Notes under the pieces: model-generated | Database searches by the model: none | What the model was told of the DNA's origin: nothing | What the model saw: only the letters and a program-made list of their open reading frames with translations | Part shown: piece by piece, positions 5,123-37,357 of the stretch | Numbering within the stretch: position 1 is the first letter of the stretch | How the letters are laid out: every line of letters begins with the position of its first letter | Made by a program: the position numbers and the translations under genes | Assembly (NCBI GenBank): GCA_013286575.1 | Contig: JABDFL010000001.1 | Location: 9,905-73,904, forward strand | DNA: 64,000 nt | Direction of reading: 5' to 3' | Origin: Candidatus Omnitrophota bacterium | GTDB lineage: Bacteria > Omnitrophota > Gorgyraeia > Zapsychrales > Fredricksoniimonadaceae

Positions 5123-5191
5123 TCATCGTTCATTTTTGTCCAAAGATCTGTAACCGACAGCCTCGGCGATATGCGGGGCTTCGATGGTTCC
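5123..5191 (-). pseudogene. Orphan duplicate of the comM 3' end. It encodes ...GTIEAPHIAEAVGYRSLDKNER*, whereas comM ends ...PEHIAEAVGYRSLDRASF*.
   Basis: Translation of the minus strand gives a 12/12 aa match to the ComM C-terminus with many synonymous DNA differences. It lies just beyond the RAYT gene, on the side away from comM. Confidence 0.5.
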
Positions 5192-5216
5192 ATTATACCT
5201 CCGGGAGGTGTAATGG
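5190..5216. repeat. 27-nt near-perfect palindrome (REP-like hairpin) CCATTATACCTCC-G-GGAGGTGTAATGG. It overlaps the 3' end of the RAYT gene.
   Basis: Self-complementary with one mismatch. A second copy lies at 5513-5539. Confidence 0.7.
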
Positions 5217-5714
5217 TGTGGAAGCAGAAGAATAGGGCCACTCTTCAGGCGTTTTTATAATATTTTCTTTAACAGGATTGTAATGCACGTATTGGATCCG
5301 GTTATTCAATCCCTTTATATCCAGAATGATTCGGTTGCCAAATCGATTTTGCCATAATGGTCCCCGCCGATTGTGTCTTAAGTTGAAATAATTGGAATAA
5401 GCATTTAATGTCCTTCGCATAAAGGTTTCAATTCCCTTATTTTCCAATTGTTGAAGTATGAAATGGACGTGGGTGGGCATTAGGCAGAAAGCAATGATGT
5501 TTACTAAAGGGACCATTACACCTCCGGGTGGTGTGATGGCGGTTCTTTTTATTACGTAACTAAAAGGCCTGATATGTCCGTCATATCTGTAGTATTCCAT
5601 TAGCCCCAGCATTCTTTGGTATTCTTCTTTACAACTGAAGATCGTATACCCGTAGATGCTTTTGTTATAAATGTGATGGAATGATTTATTTTCAAAAGGA
5701 CAAAGGCGTTTCAT
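5193..5714 (-). CDS. REP-associated tyrosine transposase (RAYT), of the IS200/IS605 TnpA-like HUH Y1 family.
   Basis: 173 aa. HuH motif MPTHVHFIL. C-terminal block YVHYNPVKENIIKTPEEWPYSS matches the RAYT signature (Y...NPV...WP.SS). Both palindrome copies are translated within the ORF (ITPPGGVMV internally, TPLHLPEV at the C-terminus). Confidence 0.75.
   Translation of the reverse strand: MKRLCPFENKSFHHIYNKSIYGYTIFSCKEEYQRMLGLMEYYRYDGHIRPFSYVIKRTAITPPGGVMVPLVNIIAFCLMPTHVHFILQQLENKGIETFMRRTLNAYSNYFNLRHNRRGPLWQNRFGNRIILDIKGLNNRIQYVHYNPVKENIIKTPEEWPYSSASTPLHLPEV
5513..5539. repeat. Second copy of the REP-like palindrome (CCATTACACCTCC-G-GGTGGTGTGATGG, 2 mismatches), inside the RAYT coding sequence.
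   Basis: Same orientation as the copy at 5190-5216. It encodes an in-frame extra segment upstream of the HuH motif. Confidence 0.7.
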
Positions 5715-10686: not shown

Positions 10687-11226
10687 TTATTGTGAAGAGG
10701 AATTTTGCTGCTGTTCGGCTGCTATTTTTTGTAGAAACGCCTGCATGCGGGGGTTGCTCATTAAGGCCTGGACTTGGGGATTACTTTGTACGGCCTGGTA
10801 ATTGTGTGAAGTGACAGCCTGTACCAAGGCAGGATCTTGGAGTGCCTGCATAATTTCCGGGTCTTGGGCCATTTCCTGCAGCTCAGCCATGGCTTGAGGA
10901 TTAGACATCAGTTTTTGTTGACTGGCCGCGATTTGCGCATCCATATTGTTGGATGGAGCGCCTGAGGCCTGTGCAGGCATAGCAGCAACAGGGGCGGCAG
11001 TACCATCAGCGGCACCGTTGGTGATGCTGGCTACATCGCTGGCAGCCACATGCACATCGCCAATGATAGGTGTTTTAACGGTGTAAACGCCGTTATTGAT
11101 ACCAGCGAGTTGGCCTTTGATTTGCGAGCCGTCCTTGAGGGTGATCACCTGTTCGGCATCATCGGCAAAAGCAGTAATGTTTGCGGACAGAAATAAAAGG
11201 GTAAGGGTAAAAATAAATTTGTACAT
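10687..11226 (-). CDS. Secreted protein with a Q/M/A-rich C-terminal region of STI1-like repeats.
   Basis: Has a signal peptide (MYKFIFTLTLLFLSANITAFA). Repeated P.(A/V)MQALQDP motifs. Its N-terminal module (ITLKDGSQIKGQL...) is shared with the 26820..27479 protein. Confidence 0.5.
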   Translation of the reverse strand: MYKFIFTLTLLFLSANITAFADDAEQVITLKDGSQIKGQLAGINNGVYTVKTPIIGDVHVAASDVASITNGAADGTAAPVAAMPAQASGAPSNNMDAQIAASQQKLMSNPQAMAELQEMAQDPEIMQALQDPALVQAVTSHNYQAVQSNPQVQALMSNPRMQAFLQKIAAEQQQNSSSQ

Positions 11227-11416
11227 AAGGCAAGTCTAACATCTAATCGTGCTCTTGGCAAGTTTGACAAAAAGGTTTGTCGATGTTATATTGGCTACTT
11301 CTTATTAGACGAAGCACGGGGGTTGGCCGTTTCTCTAAATAAAGACATTGAGGAAACGGCACATTCACCCCAAATTCTTTCTGGACATATTTGCATAGTA
11401 ATTTTTGGGTAAATTT

Positions 11417-11490
11417 GGGGTTGTAGCTCAGTTTGGGAGAGCGCCTGCATGGCATGCAGGAGGTCAGGGGTTCAATCCCCCTCAACTCCA
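11417..11490 (+). tRNA. tRNA-Ala (anticodon GGC).
   Basis: Cloverleaf by eye: acceptor GGGGTTG/CAACTCC with the G3:U70 Ala identity pair, anticodon loop ATGGCAT, T-loop TTCAATC. CCA is not encoded. Confidence 0.85.
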
Positions 11491-11499
11491 CTTATTTTT

Positions 11500-11586
11500 G
11501 CCAAGGTGGCGGAACTGGTATACGCGCTGGTCTCAAAAACCAGTGGTCTCACGGCCGTGAGGGTTCAACTCCCTCCCTTGGCACCA
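11500..11586 (+). tRNA. tRNA-Leu (anticodon CAA), class II with a long variable arm.
   Basis: Acceptor GCCAAGG/CCTTGGC, anticodon loop CTCAAAA, long variable arm, T-loop TTCAACT, 3' CCA encoded. Confidence 0.85.
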
Positions 11587-11597
11587 TAAAATAAAAA

Positions 11598-11625
11598 GGG
11601 GACACTTTTGAGTGTCCCCTTTTTA
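11598..11625 (+). terminator. Rho-independent terminator after the tRNA pair.
   Basis: GGGGACAC-ttttga-GTGTCCCC followed by TTTTTAT. Confidence 0.6.
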
Positions 11626-11635
11626 TGCCTTTCAC

Positions 11636-11669
11636 ATTGTAAACTAGGATTACCATCATAGTTGACAAT
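11636..11669. promoter_or_regulatory. Candidate BirA operator (bioO-like inverted repeat): ATTGTAAACTA, 12 bp, TAGTTGACAAT.
   Basis: 11-bp half-sites with one mismatch that resemble E. coli bioO half-sites (TTGTAAACC). The right half overlaps the -35 of the iscS-birA-bio promoter. BirA here carries an N-terminal HTH. Confidence 0.45.
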
Positions 11670-11690
11670 CCTCCCGGCGTTGGCTATCAT
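11662..11690 (+). promoter_or_regulatory. Sigma70-like promoter: TTGACA, 17 bp, TATCAT, directly upstream of iscS.
   Basis: The -10 ends 9 nt before the iscS ATG at 11700, implying a leaderless or near-leaderless transcript. Confidence 0.5.
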
Positions 11691-11699
11691 AATCCTCTT

Positions 11700-12845
11700 A
11701 TGCGCTCCATTTATCTAGATCATGCGGCAACTACAGCTTGTGACCCTCGTGTGCTTGAGGCCATGCGGCCTTTCTTTTTCGAGCAAAGCGGAAATGCTTC
11801 AAGCCCACACAGGCAAGGCCGCCAGGCCCGCCGCGCCGTTGAGGAGGCCCGTGAAATATTAGCCGCTTTTATAGGTACCGCACCGGTGGAAATTATTTTT
11901 ACCAGCGGTGCCAGTGAGTCCAATAATCACGCTATTTTTTCGACAGCCAGGGCTTTAAAGACCAAGGGCAAGCATATTATTGCCTCTGCGATCGAGCATC
12001 ATTCAGTATTGGAACCCCTGCATCAACTGGAGCAGGATGGTTTTCAGGTAAGCTATGTTAAGCCCAAGGCGGACGGTATCGTTGCCTTTGAAGATATAAA
12101 GTCTCTGCGGCGGCCAGACACCATCCTTGTCTGCCTTCAGCATGCCAACAATGAAATCGGAACTTTGCAGCCCGTTGAAGAAGCGGGACGCCTATGCCGC
12201 GAGCAAGGCATTTACTTTTTAGTGGATGCTACCCAGACCATCGGGCATATACCTGTGAATGTTAAAGATATCCCCTGTGATTTCCTTTCCCTCTCCGCAC
12301 ATAAATTTTATGGACCCCAGGGAGTAGGTGCTTTATATGTCCGTCAAGGCATTAAATGTCCTGCCTTTATATTAGGCGGCGACCAGGAACGCGGACGCAG
12401 GGCAGGCACACATAATACCACGGGGATCGTCGGTTTGGGAGAGGCCATCAAACTTTGCCGCGCCCAAATGCCGGAAGAAACACAGCAAGAAGTTAAGTTC
12501 CGGGATGAGATCATCGATTTTGTTTTAAAAGAAATTCCCGGCGGCGTTCTTAATGGCCATCCTCAAAAGCGCCTGCCTAACAATGCCCATTTTTCTTTTC
12601 CCGGTATTAATGGTGAGGAACTCGTGAGTGCTTTGGATTTAGCGGGTGTGGCAGTGTCCATGGGTTCCGCCTGCACATGGGGGAAGCTGGAGCCCTCCCA
12701 TGTACTTAAAGCTATGGGGCTGGCAGATCAAATGGCCTTAGGTTCTTTGCGCGTCACCGTCGGCCGTTGGACTGCAAGTCAGGACGTTACATATTTTCTG
12801 GAGCAGTTGAAAATAAAATGCAAGAACGCATCATCCAATTCTTAA
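11700..12845 (+). CDS. iscS: Cysteine desulfurase (class V aminotransferase, IscS/NifS family).
   Basis: 381 aa: IYLDHAATTACDPRVLEAM, SAHKFYGPQGVGALYV (PLP lysine), GSAC active-site Cys. First gene of an operon with birA and bio genes. Confidence 0.8.
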   Translation: MRSIYLDHAATTACDPRVLEAMRPFFFEQSGNASSPHRQGRQARRAVEEAREILAAFIGTAPVEIIFTSGASESNNHAIFSTARALKTKGKHIIASAIEHHSVLEPLHQLEQDGFQVSYVKPKADGIVAFEDIKSLRRPDTILVCLQHANNEIGTLQPVEEAGRLCREQGIYFLVDATQTIGHIPVNVKDIPCDFLSLSAHKFYGPQGVGALYVRQGIKCPAFILGGDQERGRRAGTHNTTGIVGLGEAIKLCRAQMPEETQQEVKFRDEIIDFVLKEIPGGVLNGHPQKRLPNNAHFSFPGINGEELVSALDLAGVAVSMGSACTWGKLEPSHVLKAMGLADQMALGSLRVTVGRWTASQDVTYFLEQLKIKCKNASSNS

Positions 12846-32614: not shown

Positions 32615-33289
32615 ATGACAAAAATAAAAAAACTCGTCACAGTCCCTGATTTGGAAATGATGGAAGACCCCTGGCGCATTTTCCGCATCATGGCGGAATT
32701 TGTCGACGGATTTGAAGAGCTCAAAGACATTGGGCCCGCCGTGAGTATTTTCGGGTCTTCCCGCATCCATACCCTGCATTCCTATTATGACGCGGCAGAG
32801 AAGACCGCGGAATTATTAGTTAAGGCAGGTTATGCGGTGATCACCGGCGGCGGCCCCAGCATCATGGAAGCAGGCAATAAAGGGGCATCCAAGGCAGGCG
32901 GCAAATCCATCGGGCTTAACATTGACCTGCCTTTCGAACAAAAACCAAATGATTATATTAATCATCTGATCAATTTTCATTATTTTTTCTGCCGCAAGGT
33001 CTGTTTTGTCAAATACGCCAAGGCCTTTGTGATTTTTCCCGGCGGCTACGGGACCCTGGATGAATTATCAGAAAGCATCACGCTTATACAGACCCAGCGC
33101 ATGCAGCAATTCCCGGTCATCCTTTACGGAAGCAAGTACTGGAAAGGGCTTTTGGATTGGTTTAAAGGGCCTGTACTCCATGAAGGCTGCATTGATGTCA
33201 AGGATTTGGACATTGTGCAGACAGCGGATAAGCCCGAAGATGTTGTTAAGATCATCAAAAAGTTTTACAGCAAGAAAAAGAAAAAATGA
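32615..33289 (+). CDS. LOG-family protein (TIGR00730; cytokinin riboside 5'-monophosphate phosphoribohydrolase / nucleotide N-glycosidase-like).
   Basis: 224 aa: GGGPSIMEAGNKGA, PGGYGTLDEL. It sits inside the purine operon between purL and purQ. Confidence 0.8.
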   Translation: MTKIKKLVTVPDLEMMEDPWRIFRIMAEFVDGFEELKDIGPAVSIFGSSRIHTLHSYYDAAEKTAELLVKAGYAVITGGGPSIMEAGNKGASKAGGKSIGLNIDLPFEQKPNDYINHLINFHYFFCRKVCFVKYAKAFVIFPGGYGTLDELSESITLIQTQRMQQFPVILYGSKYWKGLLDWFKGPVLHEGCIDVKDLDIVQTADKPEDVVKIIKKFYSKKKKK

Positions 33290-34074
33290 CCCCCAATGTC
33301 AAAGTCATAGTCATTCGCACCGCAGGCACCAATTGCAACGAGGAGACAGCGTTTGCCTTCAGCCGTTTGGGTGCGCATGTGGATCAGGTGCATATCAATG
33401 CTCTGATCGCCGGCACTTTTAAATTAAGCGATTATCATATCCTGGCTTTGCCCGGCGGGTTTAGCTATGGTGATGATATTGCTTCGGGGCGTATTTTGGC
33501 CAATGAATTACGTTTGAAATTGGCAGAGGAGATCAAACAATTTATCCGTGACGGCAAATTAATTATCGGTATATGCAATGGATTCCAGATCCTGGCTAAA
33601 GCCGGTATTTTGCCCGGCCTCGGATGGAAGATTGGACAAGAAACAACGTTGTTCTATAATGATTCTGCCAAATTCGAGGCCCGTTGGGTGCATTTGAAGG
33701 TGGAAAGCCGTTGCGTGTGGACAAAAGGCATGCCCGGCCAGATTTATCTGCCCGTGGCCCACGGCGAGGGAAAATTCATCCCGCGCGAGAAGAAAGTCCT
33801 GGACGCGCTGACAAGTAACGGCCAAATCGTCCTGCGTTATTGCGCTCCTGATGGAAGCAAGCCTGCGTATCCGGAGAATCCCAACGGATCAACCGATGAT
33901 ATCGCCGGCATCTGCGACACCACCGGACGCGTCTTTGGCCTAATGCCGCATCCGGAACGTCATTTTTTATTCGAGCAACACCCATACTGGACACGCTTAA
34001 AGAAAACAAGCGATTTCGGCGACGGAGCCAAGATATTCGAAAACGGCATTAATTACGTGAAGGAAAATTTGTAG
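33286..34074 (+). CDS. purQ: Phosphoribosylformylglycinamidine synthase glutaminase subunit.
   Basis: 262 aa class-I glutamine amidotransferase. GICNGFQ nucleophile Cys and HPE catalytic His/Glu. Confidence 0.85.
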   Translation: MTPNVKVIVIRTAGTNCNEETAFAFSRLGAHVDQVHINALIAGTFKLSDYHILALPGGFSYGDDIASGRILANELRLKLAEEIKQFIRDGKLIIGICNGFQILAKAGILPGLGWKIGQETTLFYNDSAKFEARWVHLKVESRCVWTKGMPGQIYLPVAHGEGKFIPREKKVLDALTSNGQIVLRYCAPDGSKPAYPENPNGSTDDIAGICDTTGRVFGLMPHPERHFLFEQHPYWTRLKKTSDFGDGAKIFENGINYVKENL

Positions 34075-34079
34075 CGCCC

Positions 34080-34120
34080 GTGTCATTGCGAGGAGCCGGA
34101 GGCGACGAAGCAATCTTTTA
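34080..34120. repeat. Hairpin repeat family A (GTGTCATTGCGAGGAGC..GGCGACGAAGCAATCTTTT), copy 1.
   Basis: Begins 6 nt after the purQ stop. There are 5 copies in the window (34080, 34188, 43783, 61928, 63181). Confidence 0.7.
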
Positions 34121-34146
34121 ACACTGTCATTCCTTGGATTTTACAT

Positions 34147-34177
34147 TGTCATTCCCGAATGTTTTTGTCGGGAATCT
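34147..34177. repeat. Hairpin repeat family B copy (GTCATTCCCGAATGTTTTTGTCGGGAATCT).
   Basis: Stem ATTCCCGA/TCGGGAAT. Confidence 0.6.
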
Positions 34178-34187
34178 AGAACAAGTT

Positions 34188-34228
34188 GTGTCATTGCGAG
34201 GAGCTGAAGGCGACGAAGCAATCTTTTT
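34188..34228. repeat. Hairpin repeat family A, copy 2.
   Basis: GTGTCATTGCGAGGAGCTGAAGGCGACGAAGCAATCTTTTT. Confidence 0.7.
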
Positions 34229-34233
34229 AGAAT

Positions 34234-34261
34234 CGTCATCCTGAGCGTAGCGAAGGATCTC
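34234..34261. repeat. Hairpin repeat family C (CGTCATCCTGAGCGTAGCGAAGGATCTC).
   Basis: Only one copy in the window. It shares the GTCAT head with families A and B. Confidence 0.5.
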
Positions 34262-34285
34262 TAAAAGAATGACCTTGTAGCATGA

Positions 34286-34457
34286 ATATGGTTAAACGGT
34301 GTTGTTCCCGAAACGGGATATTTTTGCCGTCTGCTTCGGTTTACATCAAAAATGTTCTAAAGATTCTCTTCATTTGGAACATTTTTGACGTAAATCCTCG
34401 CAGACATTTGGCAAAAAATCCCTGAATGTTTCGTCCACAACACCATTTAACCATATA
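34286..34457. mobile_element. 172-bp imperfect palindrome, a MITE-like element or structured RNA, with 20-bp terminal inverted repeats (ATATGGTTAAACGGTGTTGT / ACAACACCATTTAACCATAT).
   Basis: Terminal arms match 19/20. The internal halves are also mutually complementary (e.g. TTTACATCAAAAATGTTC vs GAACATTTTTGACGTAAA). It lies immediately upstream of the AT-rich defence gene. Confidence 0.5.
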
Positions 34458-34515
34458 CGAGTGATTGCAAGTTAGAAAAGGTCGTTACTTTTAATATCGA
34501 ATTAAGAGGTGCTGT

Positions 34516-36222
34516 ATGAGGGTCACAACTTTTGATAAGGAAGTAAAGGATATTTTTAGCGGTAGTTTTTATCTAATCCCTAGGTTTCAAAGACCATATT
34601 CTTGGGATAGGGAAAATATTGAGGAATTTTGGTGCGATACAATTGCTGAAAGTGAAGGAGATTATTTTATTGGTTCAATCGTCGTTTTTAAAGATTCAAA
34701 AACAGATACATATGGCATTGTCGATGGACAGCAACGCCTAACGACAATAACTATGATTCTATGTGCATTGCGTAATGCTTTTAATGATCAGAATATGCAA
34801 TCTTTAGGGGATGGATTACATAATTTTGTAGAACGTCCTGATATAAATAATAAAAAAAGGTATGTTTTGAAACCAGAAACATCCTACCCATATTTTCAAG
34901 AATATATTCAAAAGAAAACAAAGCCCGACATTGTTCTTACTCCAGGAGTAGAAGAAGAGCTTCTTGAGAAAGCTTTTATGGCTATTTCTAGAAATATTCA
35001 ATCTACTGTCACATCAATTGTAAGTAACCGTTCTTTAAGCGAGAAAAATAAAAAAATTGAAATTGAGAAGAGTTTAATTGGCATTAGAGATAAAATCCTC
35101 AAGCTAAAGTTGATCTTTATCGAGTTGGACAGTGAAGATGATGCGTATATTATTTTTGAAACACTCAACACTCGAGGGAAAGATCTAAAAGTTTCAGATC
35201 TAGTGAAAAATCATATTACTAAACTCTTCAAACCCAAGAATGCGGATGTGGATTTACCAAAAGAACGTTGGAATAAAATAGTGGAATTGATTGACGAATC
35301 TGGGGCACAGCTAGAAGTTGACAACTTTATTCATTATTACTGGTTGTCACGCTATGAATTTGTTACTTTAAAGAAAATATTTAAACAAATAAGAAGGAAA
35401 ATAGATCAAAAAAATGCTGAAGGTTTTTTGAGATCTCTTGAGGAAGATGTCAAGACGTATCGTGAAATAAACGAAACGGTTTATAGGCCTTGGCAGAAAC
35501 AAGATTTAAGAATAAAAGAGTCATTAGATGCTATCAATTTATTTAAAGTAAAACAAGCTATGCCAATGTTGCTATCTGTAATGAGAGAATACAAAAGCGG
35601 AGGAATTCGACTTCCTAACGCAATTGAAACATTTACAAGTATTGAGAACTTTCATTTTGTGTTTACTGCTGTTACATCTCAAAGATCATCTGGAGGCATT
35701 TCATTTATGTATGCAAAAGCTGCTCGTGATCTTTGCGATGCGCCCAACATGAATGAAAAAATTAAGACCCTTAAAGAGTTACAAAGAAAACTTAAAAAAG
35801 GAAGACCGAGCAAAGATGAATTTGTTGCCAGTTTTCAGAATATTTTATATTCTAAGGAATTGTCGAAACAAAAAAAGCTCGTCCAATATATTTTGGCAAG
35901 AATAGCAGAGAAGCAATTTGGCGTGCCTATAGATTATGAAAAGATGACCATTGAACATCTAGCTTCAGAGAATCCTATAGAAGGCACTACAAAAATTCCA
36001 CCACAGTTCATTGCCCAGGTGGGTAATTTAATACTTGTCAATGACGAAACAAATGGAAAATTAAAGAATAAACTTTTTGATCAAAAAAAGAAAATACTTA
36101 TAGATTCGAAGTTGCCTTTGGATAAATGGATAAGTGGAAGTCGCGAATGGAATGTTAAAGAGATTATAAATCGTACTCGTGGCCTGGCTGAATTCGCTTA
36201 TACCAAAGTTTGGGATCTCTAA
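34516..36222 (+). CDS. GmrSD-like type IV (modification-dependent) restriction endonuclease: N-terminal DUF262 (ParB-like NTPase) plus C-terminal DUF1524 (His-Me finger).
   Basis: 568 aa. DUF262 motifs FQRPYSW and DGQQRLTT. DUF1524 motifs IEHLASENP and GNLILVNDETNGKLKNKLFDQKK. The gene is visibly AT-rich compared with the flanking pur genes. Confidence 0.75.
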   Translation: MRVTTFDKEVKDIFSGSFYLIPRFQRPYSWDRENIEEFWCDTIAESEGDYFIGSIVVFKDSKTDTYGIVDGQQRLTTITMILCALRNAFNDQNMQSLGDGLHNFVERPDINNKKRYVLKPETSYPYFQEYIQKKTKPDIVLTPGVEEELLEKAFMAISRNIQSTVTSIVSNRSLSEKNKKIEIEKSLIGIRDKILKLKLIFIELDSEDDAYIIFETLNTRGKDLKVSDLVKNHITKLFKPKNADVDLPKERWNKIVELIDESGAQLEVDNFIHYYWLSRYEFVTLKKIFKQIRRKIDQKNAEGFLRSLEEDVKTYREINETVYRPWQKQDLRIKESLDAINLFKVKQAMPMLLSVMREYKSGGIRLPNAIETFTSIENFHFVFTAVTSQRSSGGISFMYAKAARDLCDAPNMNEKIKTLKELQRKLKKGRPSKDEFVASFQNILYSKELSKQKKLVQYILARIAEKQFGVPIDYEKMTIEHLASENPIEGTTKIPPQFIAQVGNLILVNDETNGKLKNKLFDQKKKILIDSKLPLDKWISGSREWNVKEIINRTRGLAEFAYTKVWDL

Positions 36223-36352
36223 TGTCTATAATTGAGAATTGGGTTCTCATTGAAATTTGTAAAAATAGAGAAATAGCGTCTCATTAGTTTCGACGGGTGG
36301 ATCGGGATTGCGGTAAGGGGTAAATTCATCACTTACAATAGGTGAAACAATT

Positions 36353-37357
36353 ATGACACAAAAGTTGACATATAAAAAAGCAGGCGTGGATATTGCTAAG
36401 GCCAACCGGTTTGTGGATGCGATTAAGCAGATGTCTTCTATTACGATGAATAAAGGTGTGGTTGATCGGCCGGGGTCGTTTGGGGCTTTGTTTGATTTTG
36501 GTTTTTTGAAATATAAGAATCCTGTATTGGTTTCTTCGACTGATGGTGTCGGCACAAAGTTGTTGGTGGCCAATCTGGCGGGGAAGCACGATACGGTGGG
36601 TATTGATCTGGTGGCGATGAATGTTAACGATGTACTGTGCACCGGTGCCAGGCCTTTGTTCTTTTTGGATTACATAGCCACCGGCAAACTTAACCCCCGG
36701 ATCATGAAGGATGTGATGAAAGGCATTGTGGCCGGATGCAAGATGGCCGGATGCGCCCTGATCGGCGGGGAAACCGCGGAAATGCCTGATATGTACAAGG
36801 GCGAGGACTATGATTTAGCGGGCTTTACAGTCGGGGTGGTGGAGAAAGACGGCATTATTGACGGGTCAGGGATTAGATGCGATGATGTGCTCATCGGCCT
36901 GCCGTCTTCGGGGCTGCATTCCAACGGCTATTCGCTGGCCCGTAAGGCTTTAAGTACAAAGGAACAAAAACTTTACGCGCAAATTTTGCTCAAGCCCACC
37001 TGCATTTATGTTAAGCCGGTCTTGGGCCTGCTTGAGAAATTTAAAATCAAAGGCATGGCGCATATGACAGGCGGCGCCTGGTACGAAAAATTGACCAAGG
37101 TCCTGCCTAAAGGATTGTGCTTTTCTGTCAACAAGGGAAGCTGGCCTGTTCCCCGAATATTTGAATTGATCCGGGACAAAGGACACATTCCGGAACATGA
37201 GATGTACCGCACCTTTAATATGGGCATTGGCTTTTGCCTGGTGGTAGAGCCCAAGGATGTTGTCGGGGTCCATGCTTTTTTACGTTCGCAAAAAATAGAG
37301 TCATTTGTCATCGGTGAGGTGACGCAGGATTCGAAGCATAAGGTGATATTTAGATAA
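36353..37357 (+). CDS. purM: Phosphoribosylformylglycinamidine cyclo-ligase (AIR synthase).
   Basis: 334 aa: STDGVGTKL, DLVAMNVNDV. Confidence 0.9.
   Translation: MTQKLTYKKAGVDIAKANRFVDAIKQMSSITMNKGVVDRPGSFGALFDFGFLKYKNPVLVSSTDGVGTKLLVANLAGKHDTVGIDLVAMNVNDVLCTGARPLFFLDYIATGKLNPRIMKDVMKGIVAGCKMAGCALIGGETAEMPDMYKGEDYDLAGFTVGVVEKDGIIDGSGIRCDDVLIGLPSSGLHSNGYSLARKALSTKEQKLYAQILLKPTCIYVKPVLGLLEKFKIKGMAHMTGGAWYEKLTKVLPKGLCFSVNKGSWPVPRIFELIRDKGHIPEHEMYRTFNMGIGFCLVVEPKDVVGVHAFLRSQKIESFVIGEVTQDSKHKVIFR

Follow-up and report, generated by a model that had tools for sequence, protein, structure and literature searches.

A long imperfect palindrome lies directly upstream of a gene for a GmrSD-type defence protein in the 64-kb window, by which we mean the whole stretch of DNA that was analysed. 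Is it a mobile element, a regulatory RNA, or a part of the defence island beside it? The initial annotation had proposed either a miniature inverted-repeat element that delivered or accompanied the island or a cis-regulatory RNA for the defence gene. We consider the palindrome, with a probability of about 0.7, to be a non-autonomous, REPIN/MITE-like mobile hairpin and one member of a family, not described before, of ~165-nt interspersed palindromic repeats in Omnitrophota. A literature search found no published description of such repeats in this phylum. It is well supported that the element is a dispersed, inserted, non-coding hairpin repeat, and we infer its mode of spread and any role that it may have at the RNA level.

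Sequence, fold and coding potential of the window copy

The 172-bp palindrome proved to be real, with the position and sequence first described for it. Its strict extent is a near-perfect 171 nt, and position 34457 is a single extra A. As had been noted, 19 of 20 positions agree between the terminal arms, ATATGGTTAAACGGTGTTGT and ATATGGTTAAATGGTGTTGT (reverse strand). A search with up to 3 mismatches found these terminal 20-mers at two sites only in the 64 kb, against 0.01 expected by chance, and the pair is thus unique in the window. Two nested inverted repeats were located within the element by a repeat search, with arms of 29 nt (86% complementarity) and 33 nt (82%). The conservation of the family is wider than the palindrome and covers roughly 34280-34470. 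The coordinates of all features are given in Table 1.

The whole unit was predicted to fold into a single continuous long hairpin, in agreement with the ~80-bp hairpin proposed for it. RNA folding gave -82.6 kcal/mol (z = -14.7) for the + strand and -88.8 kcal/mol (z = -15.2) for the - strand, and 0 of 200 shuffles were as good for either strand. With DNA parameters the energy was -50.1 kcal/mol (z = -12.8).

The element had been described as having no coding capacity. This is not literally correct, since a 47-aa ORF is present at 34282-34425. In most of the other copies this frame has no start or has a premature stop, and the indels of the family are not multiples of three. The coding reading was therefore rejected, and the earlier conclusion that the element is non-coding is correct. 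The Rfam 15 covariance-model search gave no family match; the only hits were sub-threshold chance matches to eukaryotic miRNA precursors and Drosophila rox2, with 17-20 bits compared with gathering scores of 48-81.

Table 1. Features of the window discussed in the text (positions within the 64-kb stretch).
Feature	Position	Strand	Remarks
RAYT-like Y1 (HUH) transposase gene	5193-5714	-	Pfam Y1_Tnp 26.4 bits; NCBIfam REP_Tyr_transpos 71.8 bits (cut-off 80)
purQ	33286-34074		upstream of the short-repeat cluster and the element
Cluster of unrelated short hairpin repeats	34080-34262	+	GTGTCATTGCGAGGAGC..GACGAAGCAATC (twice), TGTCATTCCCGAATG..TCGGGAATC, CGTCATCCTGAGCGTAGCGAAGGATC
Left flank GCATGA	34280-34285	+	partly conserved in unrelated copies, consensus cATGA-ATAT-GG (position-wise conservation, 34 copies)
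Palindromic repeat element	34286-34456	+	A-end first, same direction as flanking genes; hairpin z about -13 to -15
A-end conserved terminus GGTTAAACGGTGTTGT-TCC-CGAAACGGGATATTTT	34290-34324	+	nearly invariant in 19 aligned copies
Apical module, hypervariable stem TTTACATCAAAAATGTTC / GAACATTTTTGACGTAAA round loop TAAAGATTCTCTTCATTTG	34340-34392	+	covariation across copies
B-end conserved terminus AAAAATCCC-TGAAT-GTTTCG-TCC-ACAACACCATTTAACC	34413-34452	+	bulges and loop conserved, neighbouring stems covary
Right flank ACGAGTGATTGCAA	34457-34470	+	common to orthologous locus L031 up to ...GAT and to unrelated locus L020 (ATATACGAGTGATTGTAA)
Low-GC insertion with GmrSD gene	34471-36334	+	absent from L031; boundaries inferred from the window/L031 alignment
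GmrSD gene	34516-36222	+	GmrSD_N and GmrSD_C domains; GC 0.33 compared with about 0.50 in the flanks

A dispersed repeat family

The palindrome is not single-copy. Homologues, about 40 in all, occur at no fewer than 30 unrelated loci of Candidatus Omnitrophota MAGs and of metagenomes. PurQ homologues with 75-81% identity to that of the window bear the NCBI name Candidatus Omnitrophica/Omnitrophota, which places the source of the window in this phylum as well. A scan of one genome per species with an 18-nt terminal pattern gave 18 loci. By a rough estimate most of these are the single matches that are expected by chance for an 18-mer; four are not, as they show the full terminal architecture on both sides. 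These four belong to two Candidatus Omnitrophota MAGs, JABDCU01 with paired termini on two contigs and CAVYLG01 with two copies on one 1.29-Mb contig. A 22-nt terminal pattern gave 48 metagenome loci, of which a few are expected by chance according to our estimate. Altogether 36 complete copies were extracted, in addition to truncated and variant copies, and the copy number per genome is a lower bound. Locus L052 is the only one with two copies, which are 1.25 kb apart. The copies of L008 and L012, two unrelated loci of one MAG, are nearly identical, which suggests that they spread recently or are under constraint.

IMG/VR (pattern search), PLSDB and INPHARED contained no match, so no copy was present in the viral contigs, plasmids and phages of these collections. 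A viral, plasmid or phage origin was rejected on this basis.

Conserved ends and exchangeable interiors

Two conserved, slightly asymmetric ends of ~35 nt each surround an exchangeable interior. The word GGTTAAAYGGTRTTGT is common to both ends of all copies. Past this shared terminus the A-end reads TCC-CGAAAC-GGGAT-A-TTTT, and the B-end, read inward, GGA-CGAAAC-ATTCA-GGGAT-TTTT. A mini-hairpin, TCCCGAAACGGGA, forms locally within the A-end and precedes TATTTTT (34306-34318 plus the tail). The B-end has a conserved 5-nt bulge, TGAAT, at 34423-34427, and its TCC (34434-34436) forms one side of a 3x3 internal loop, opposite 34306-34308. In the folded element this internal loop, the 5-nt bulge and two smaller bulges are all at fixed places. 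The apical helix is the variable part, with changes on both sides in 10 of 17 pairs across copies.

The interiors belong to at least four unrelated types, plus deleted forms, and the GG...CC span, most often 163 nt, lies between 76 and 194 nt. An nhmmer search also detected a sister sub-family, which has the window-type interior and different, mutually complementary termini (GG[AC]TGA[AC]CA[CG]CTATTATGT). The copy at L020 is a chimera of the window-type family and this sister sub-family. One interior module, GGTCCTCAAGCCGGACAC.CACAGTTGTTCG (L005, L011, L033), was also seen inside a TGTCATTCCCGAATG...TCGGGAATCC hairpin repeat at about 1480-1590 of L019/L032, which indicates that modules are common to different repeat families.

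Other hairpin repeats accompany the element. Short types like those of the window cluster are often present just upstream of the A-end elsewhere, and also at the purQ-purM junction in relatives. The families GTCATTGCGAGG..GAAGCAATC, TGTCATTCCCG[N]CGGGAATCC(AGACAC) and GTCATCCTGAGCG..GAAGGATC were observed in the window (34080-34262), in L079 (3690-3850) and in the flanks of L019, L027, L038, L039 and L058. About one copy in three has a GGGAATCCAGACAC-type repeat 8-20 nt upstream of its A-end, and L079 has five near-tandem copies of this repeat between a GIY-YIG and a TIR gene. A second palindromic family of ~150 nt, with outer arms GGCTGATRCCGATAT..CTGCGTATA / TATACGCAG..ATATCGGYATCAGCC, was found at L067 (10851-11003), at L079 (3850-4000 and 4768-4920) and in the right flanks of L030, L034 and L056. 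At some loci the right arm of this second family directly adjoins the B-end of the present element, which gives nested or composite repeats.

Covariation and maintenance of pairing

The homologues show strong covariation. In an alignment of 19 window-type copies, RNAalifold predicted 62 pairs, 21 of them with changes on both sides. The share of paired cells was 96.6%, compared with 87.6% in shuffles and 40-46% in slid controls, and the covariation score of 0.268 (0.100 in shuffles) was reached by 0 of 500 shuffles. For all 34 folded copies, other interior types included, the predictions showed strong base-pairing in which one conserved end pairs with the other, and all window-type copies among them gave one long hairpin. 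Four pairs just outside GGTTAAA...TTTAACC covary too, and in individual copies the complementarity extends up to 8 bp, as in the outer flanks of L040 (ACGGTGAT/ATCACCGT). Columns 10 and 181, for instance, hold UA in 11 copies, GC in 4 and AU in 4, with none broken.

The covarying pairs almost lack G-U intermediates and include transversion swaps, UA to AU and GC to CG. Stem mismatches are mostly A-C on the A-to-B strand, which is usually the mRNA sense strand. The opposite, usually antisense, strand folds better in 32 of 34 copies; the strand preference seen in G-U versus A-C mismatches comes mostly from a few inherited positions and is hence not decisive. The rare wobble pairs, the transversion swaps and the better antisense folding argue against a simple functional RNA. 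Replication template switching is a published one-step process in which one arm is copied onto the other, creating and repairing hairpins (PMC8794818). Such arm-to-arm copying is likely to contribute to the maintained pairing. The family is a clean example of hairpin pairing kept almost without G-U intermediates, and it bears on the limits of covariation alone as evidence for a functional RNA.

Position in operons and a possible RNA-level role

Nearly all copies with both neighbours callable occupy short spacers between co-directional ORFs, usually 5-60 nt away from them. The A-end is upstream relative to the flanking genes in 28 of 34 copies, with 6 antisense (binomial p = 2e-4), and after conservative removal of orthologous duplicates the ratio was 22:6 (p = 0.004). 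This bias could follow transcription or replication, since the window genes are almost all on one strand. The immediate neighbours are mostly housekeeping genes, namely nuo, proC, hisS, an ACP gene, a Bax-inhibitor-like gene and pur genes, with HicAB at one locus, and an association with defence genes was rejected for this reason. The proposal of a cis-regulatory RNA for the defence gene is not supported as a gene-specific role, in view of these neighbours, which besides proC, hisS, nuo and the ACP gene include purM and others, and of the lack of an Rfam match.

On the A-to-B (+) strand, and only there, the 5-bp mini-hairpin of the A-end with its TATTTTT agrees with a relaxed consensus for terminators. 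No T-run follows the long hairpin on either strand, and for want of such a directly adjoining U-tract the long hairpin was rejected as an intrinsic terminator. A sigma-70 consensus scan found no promoter inside the element. As the element sits inside operons, it would be co-transcribed and would form an ~80-bp RNA hairpin in the operon mRNA. By analogy with ERIC and Correia repeats, this hairpin could stabilise the polycistronic mRNA or have it processed by RNase III or RNase E. An effect of a general kind on the transcripts of operons, at the level of RNA, is possible.

An alternative explanation is a structured RNA family, either a cis-acting element of operon mRNAs or a small RNA gene, in which a functional fold conserves the copies and dispersal accounts only for their arrival. 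The very strong covariation, the conserved asymmetric bulges and internal loop, the 28:6 orientation bias inside operon spacers, and the mini-hairpin with a U-run on the A-to-B strand only are all consistent with it, and ERIC and Correia repeats are precedents for orientation-dependent effects on mRNA (PMC2229807, PMC2649163). However, the covariation has the near-absent G-U intermediates and transversion swaps that DNA-level arm-to-arm copying would give, and it is usually the antisense strand that is the better folder (32 of 34 copies). The interiors are freely swapped or deleted (76-194 nt), the neighbours have no common function, and the orientation bias could equally reflect the direction of replication. 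The Rfam search, the sigma-70-like promoter scan and the inspection for a U-tract after the long hairpin were likewise negative. We therefore regard a structured RNA as an unlikely explanation of the family.

The purQ-purM junction

In the window, purM starts at 36353, after the GmrSD gene. In L068, L071-73 and L074, whose PurQ proteins are 87-90% identical to that of the window, the distance from purQ to purM is 2, 3 or 18 nt, and these are empty sites. Judged by comparison with them, the element is inserted DNA; the filled sites hold extra, diverged sequence and the inserted DNA is longer than the palindrome, so the insertion boundaries are not exact. L031 has the order purQ, 42 nt, element, 27 nt, purM, without the GmrSD gene and without the upstream repeat cluster. 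Since L031 has the element alone, the GmrSD gene neither brought the element nor was brought by it.

Other relatives carry different cargo at this junction. L067 has short repeats, another palindrome and a low-GC 168-aa ORF (10790-11857). L079 (3326-4962) has a GIY-YIG gene, five TGTCATTCCCGCGAAAGCGGGAATCC repeats and a TIR-domain gene, and L080 (3314 onward) has NYN, TPR and AbiEii genes. No copy of the element was detected by nhmmer in the junctions of L067, L079 and L080. The idea that the palindrome delivered the island is thus not supported, given an element without GmrSD and cargo without the element. The purQ-purM junction (window 34075-36352) is a variable insertion hotspot, in which the element is one occupant among several. 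A shared insertion-prone spacer, and not a functional partnership, is the best explanation for the position of the element beside GmrSD. This hotspot, with defence genes inside a purine-biosynthesis operon and a mosaic of hairpin repeats, is the more interesting by-product of the analysis.

Some further observations were made at these junctions. At L020 a HicA/HicB toxin-antitoxin pair (557-1337, - strand) lies directly past the B-end of the chimeric copy, and the HicAB side of L020 and the GmrSD side of the window have a common 17-nt junction, ATATACGAGTGATTG[C/T]AA. The sequence CGACGGGTGGATCGGGATTGCGG at 36290-36320 of the window, 3' of GmrSD, resembles GGCGGGTGGATCGGAATTGATG around 4940 of L080; it is probably a remnant of a further repeat family at the right edge of the insertion. 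Many relatives have PurQ calls with 8-14 additional residues (P0014, P0019, P0020, P0023 and others; 270-276 compared with 262-264 aa), and one conceivable reason for these longer calls is that repeats or cargo were inserted right behind the gene.

It is conceivable, and in our opinion a long shot, that the palindromic elements and the short GTCATTCC...GGAATCC hairpin repeats mark or create integrase-less hotspots in essential operons, which would repeatedly capture single defence or toxin genes (GmrSD, TIR, AbiEii, NYN, HicAB). If this were true, the hairpin repeats would serve as the sites of recombination in a system that exchanges cassettes and differs from integrons, and the RAYT-like or small GIY-YIG enzymes of the lineage might drive it.

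The element itself might be an attachment or landing site for gene cassettes, attC-like or a lone attC without integrase, by which GmrSD entered the window and HicAB entered L020. The boxes at the base of its imperfect palindrome are conserved, the apical part varies and there are extrahelical bulges; low-GC accessory genes with the common junction lie just past the B-end at two unrelated loci, and the defence-type cargo at purQ-purM differs among relatives. The order of the core sites is however the reverse of attC, and the copies are single and dispersed among housekeeping genes, without same-orientation arrays and without an integrase beside the copies examined. In addition, L079, L080 and L067 have cargo without the element and L031 has the element without cargo. 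These results make a cassette site very improbable.

Differences between orthologous loci

One orthologous locus was compared in three genomes (L008, L040, L042/L028). The termini are 95-100% identical there, compared with ~80% for the flanking coding DNA. Between L008 and L040, L042/L028 the element has opposite orientations, different interiors and compensatorily different outer stems. The orthologous copies of L024 and L029 also have different interior types. Such differences suggest that copies were replaced, were inserted anew, or recombined with one another by way of the conserved ends.

The opposite orientations at the first locus, between identical flanks, could also suggest an invertible DNA switch in which recombination between the inverted termini flips the asymmetric interior; but the three genomes are only ~80% identical in the flanking genes, replacement or independent insertion explains the flip equally well since interior type and outer stem also differ, no invertase is nearby and no internal promoter-like site is present, so a switch is hardly credible.

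Insertion signature and search for a mobilising enzyme

The bases outside GG...CC are reverse-complementary, for example ACGGTGAT/ATCACCGT, TTAGGAT/ATCCTAA and CGAATTT/AAATTCG. Inspection by eye and position-wise statistics of the 25-nt flanks of 34 copies revealed inverted complementarity only and no direct target-site duplication. As the outer flanks are inverted and not direct, the target-site duplication anticipated for a mobile element of the MITE type does not exist in these copies. No autonomous parent IS with the same ends was found among ~15 unpaired arms inspected; each of these arms was explained by a contig end, by a truncated half or by a junction with another palindromic repeat. 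No transposase was located next to the copies.

A RAYT-like gene was detected in the window by tblastn with approximate E. coli YafM and IS200 TnpA sequences as queries. It is 29 kb from the element and is a candidate but unlinked mobilising enzyme. A different 27-nt palindrome, CCATTAYACCTCCGGGWGGTGTRATGG, is present at 5190-5216 and 5513-5539, both inside the RAYT-like reading frame, where one copy occupies a variable loop and the other the C-terminus. In three RAYT-like homologues (L076-78), perfect REP-type palindromes flank each gene on both sides. One such REP was also seen dispersed in the purB-purC spacer of L068. No copy of the element was found by nhmmer near the window gene or the L076-78 homologues. 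As the window gene and the three homologues are bracketed by other palindromes, the RAYT was rejected as the cognate transposase. The element and the RAYT-associated palindromes share only short words, GGTGTTG/CAACACC and GTGATGGTT/AACCATCAC, in inside-out order. These shared words may be regarded as an unexplained lead.

A mobile hairpin without its own transposase could spread in trans by means of an enzyme that recognises the folded or paired ends and not the precise terminal nucleotides. Recognition of this kind would explain the lack of a direct duplication, and also why the outermost 4-8 bp vary and yet remain complementary. The interiors would then be swapped between copies by recombination through the conserved ends. 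With this family an interspersed repeat with well-defined termini, structure and variants is added for the uncultivated phylum Omnitrophota. Repeats of this kind interrupt metagenome assemblies and yield spurious small ORFs, such as the 47-aa ORF of the window copy. Given how strongly they covary, one could also take them for riboswitch-like RNAs.

Comparison with known systems

The consensus of attC sites has RYYYAAC at the 5' end (R'') and GTTRRRY at the 3' end (R'). The element resembles attC in its imperfect palindrome, a structure conserved above sequence, asymmetric unpaired bases and a variable apical region. Its order is reversed, GTTRRRY...RYYYAAC, and both strands read GTTAAAC...[G/A]TTTAAC. 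Same-orientation arrays, an integrase by the copies examined and a consistent cassette association were all lacking. The element was rejected as an attC site because of the reversed core-site order and the lack of arrays.

In comparison with classical MITEs, the element has terminal inverted repeats, is small, non-coding, multi-copy and dispersed, and has both filled and empty orthologous sites, being absent from the purQ-purM junction of close relatives. In these respects the earlier designation as MITE-like holds, including the conserved inverted termini. It does not hold for the direct target duplication, of which the flanks of 34 copies showed no trace, and a parent IS was not seen among the ~15 unpaired arms inspected.

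REPINs are REP doublets mobilised by RAYTs, for example in Pseudomonas fluorescens SBW25, with conserved inverted ends and a less conserved spacer; as ssDNA or mRNA they fold into a hairpin, and compensatory changes are frequent (PMC3116915). The element is similar in its inverted conserved ends and less conserved spacer, its long hairpin and its compensatory changes. It is likewise extragenic and dispersed without its own transposase, it has truncated half copies ("singlets"), and a RAYT-like gene is present in the genome. It differs in being about twice as long (about 165 nt compared with about 70-110). Its B-end keeps no REP-like local hairpin, the equivalent of the A-end mini-hairpin being disrupted by GGA and a 5-nt insertion. 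The RAYT-like genes that we found are flanked by other palindromes and not by the element, and copies of the element were seen in tens per genome at most, not hundreds. It was therefore rejected as the REPIN of these RAYTs, since it flanks neither the window gene nor the L076-78 homologues.

The ERIC/IRU repeats of enterobacteria (127 bp) and the Correia/CREE/NEMIS repeats of Neisseria are also imperfect palindromes of 100-170 bp (PMC2229807, PMC2649163). Like the element, they occupy intergenic operon spacers, where they are transcribed, have size variants due to internal indels and give long stem-loop transcripts, the likeness in transcription being for the element by position only. Their orientation-dependent effects on mRNA are a plausible model for the 28:6 bias. 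In contrast with the element, they have TA termini and TA or other direct target duplications, and Correia repeats have IHF sites and promoter-forming ends, which were not found here. There is no sequence similarity between the element and either group.

YPAL/RU-2 of Yersinia, with 168 bp, is near-identical in size and also lacks TA termini (PMC2229807). It differs in having variable direct target duplications of 3-26 bp and internal inverted repeats (PMC2229807), whereas the element is most conserved at its termini and shows no direct duplication. YPAL/RU-2 is recorded as inserting in or beside regions of dyad symmetry (PMC2229807), and this habit is the closest precedent for the complementary flanks of the element.
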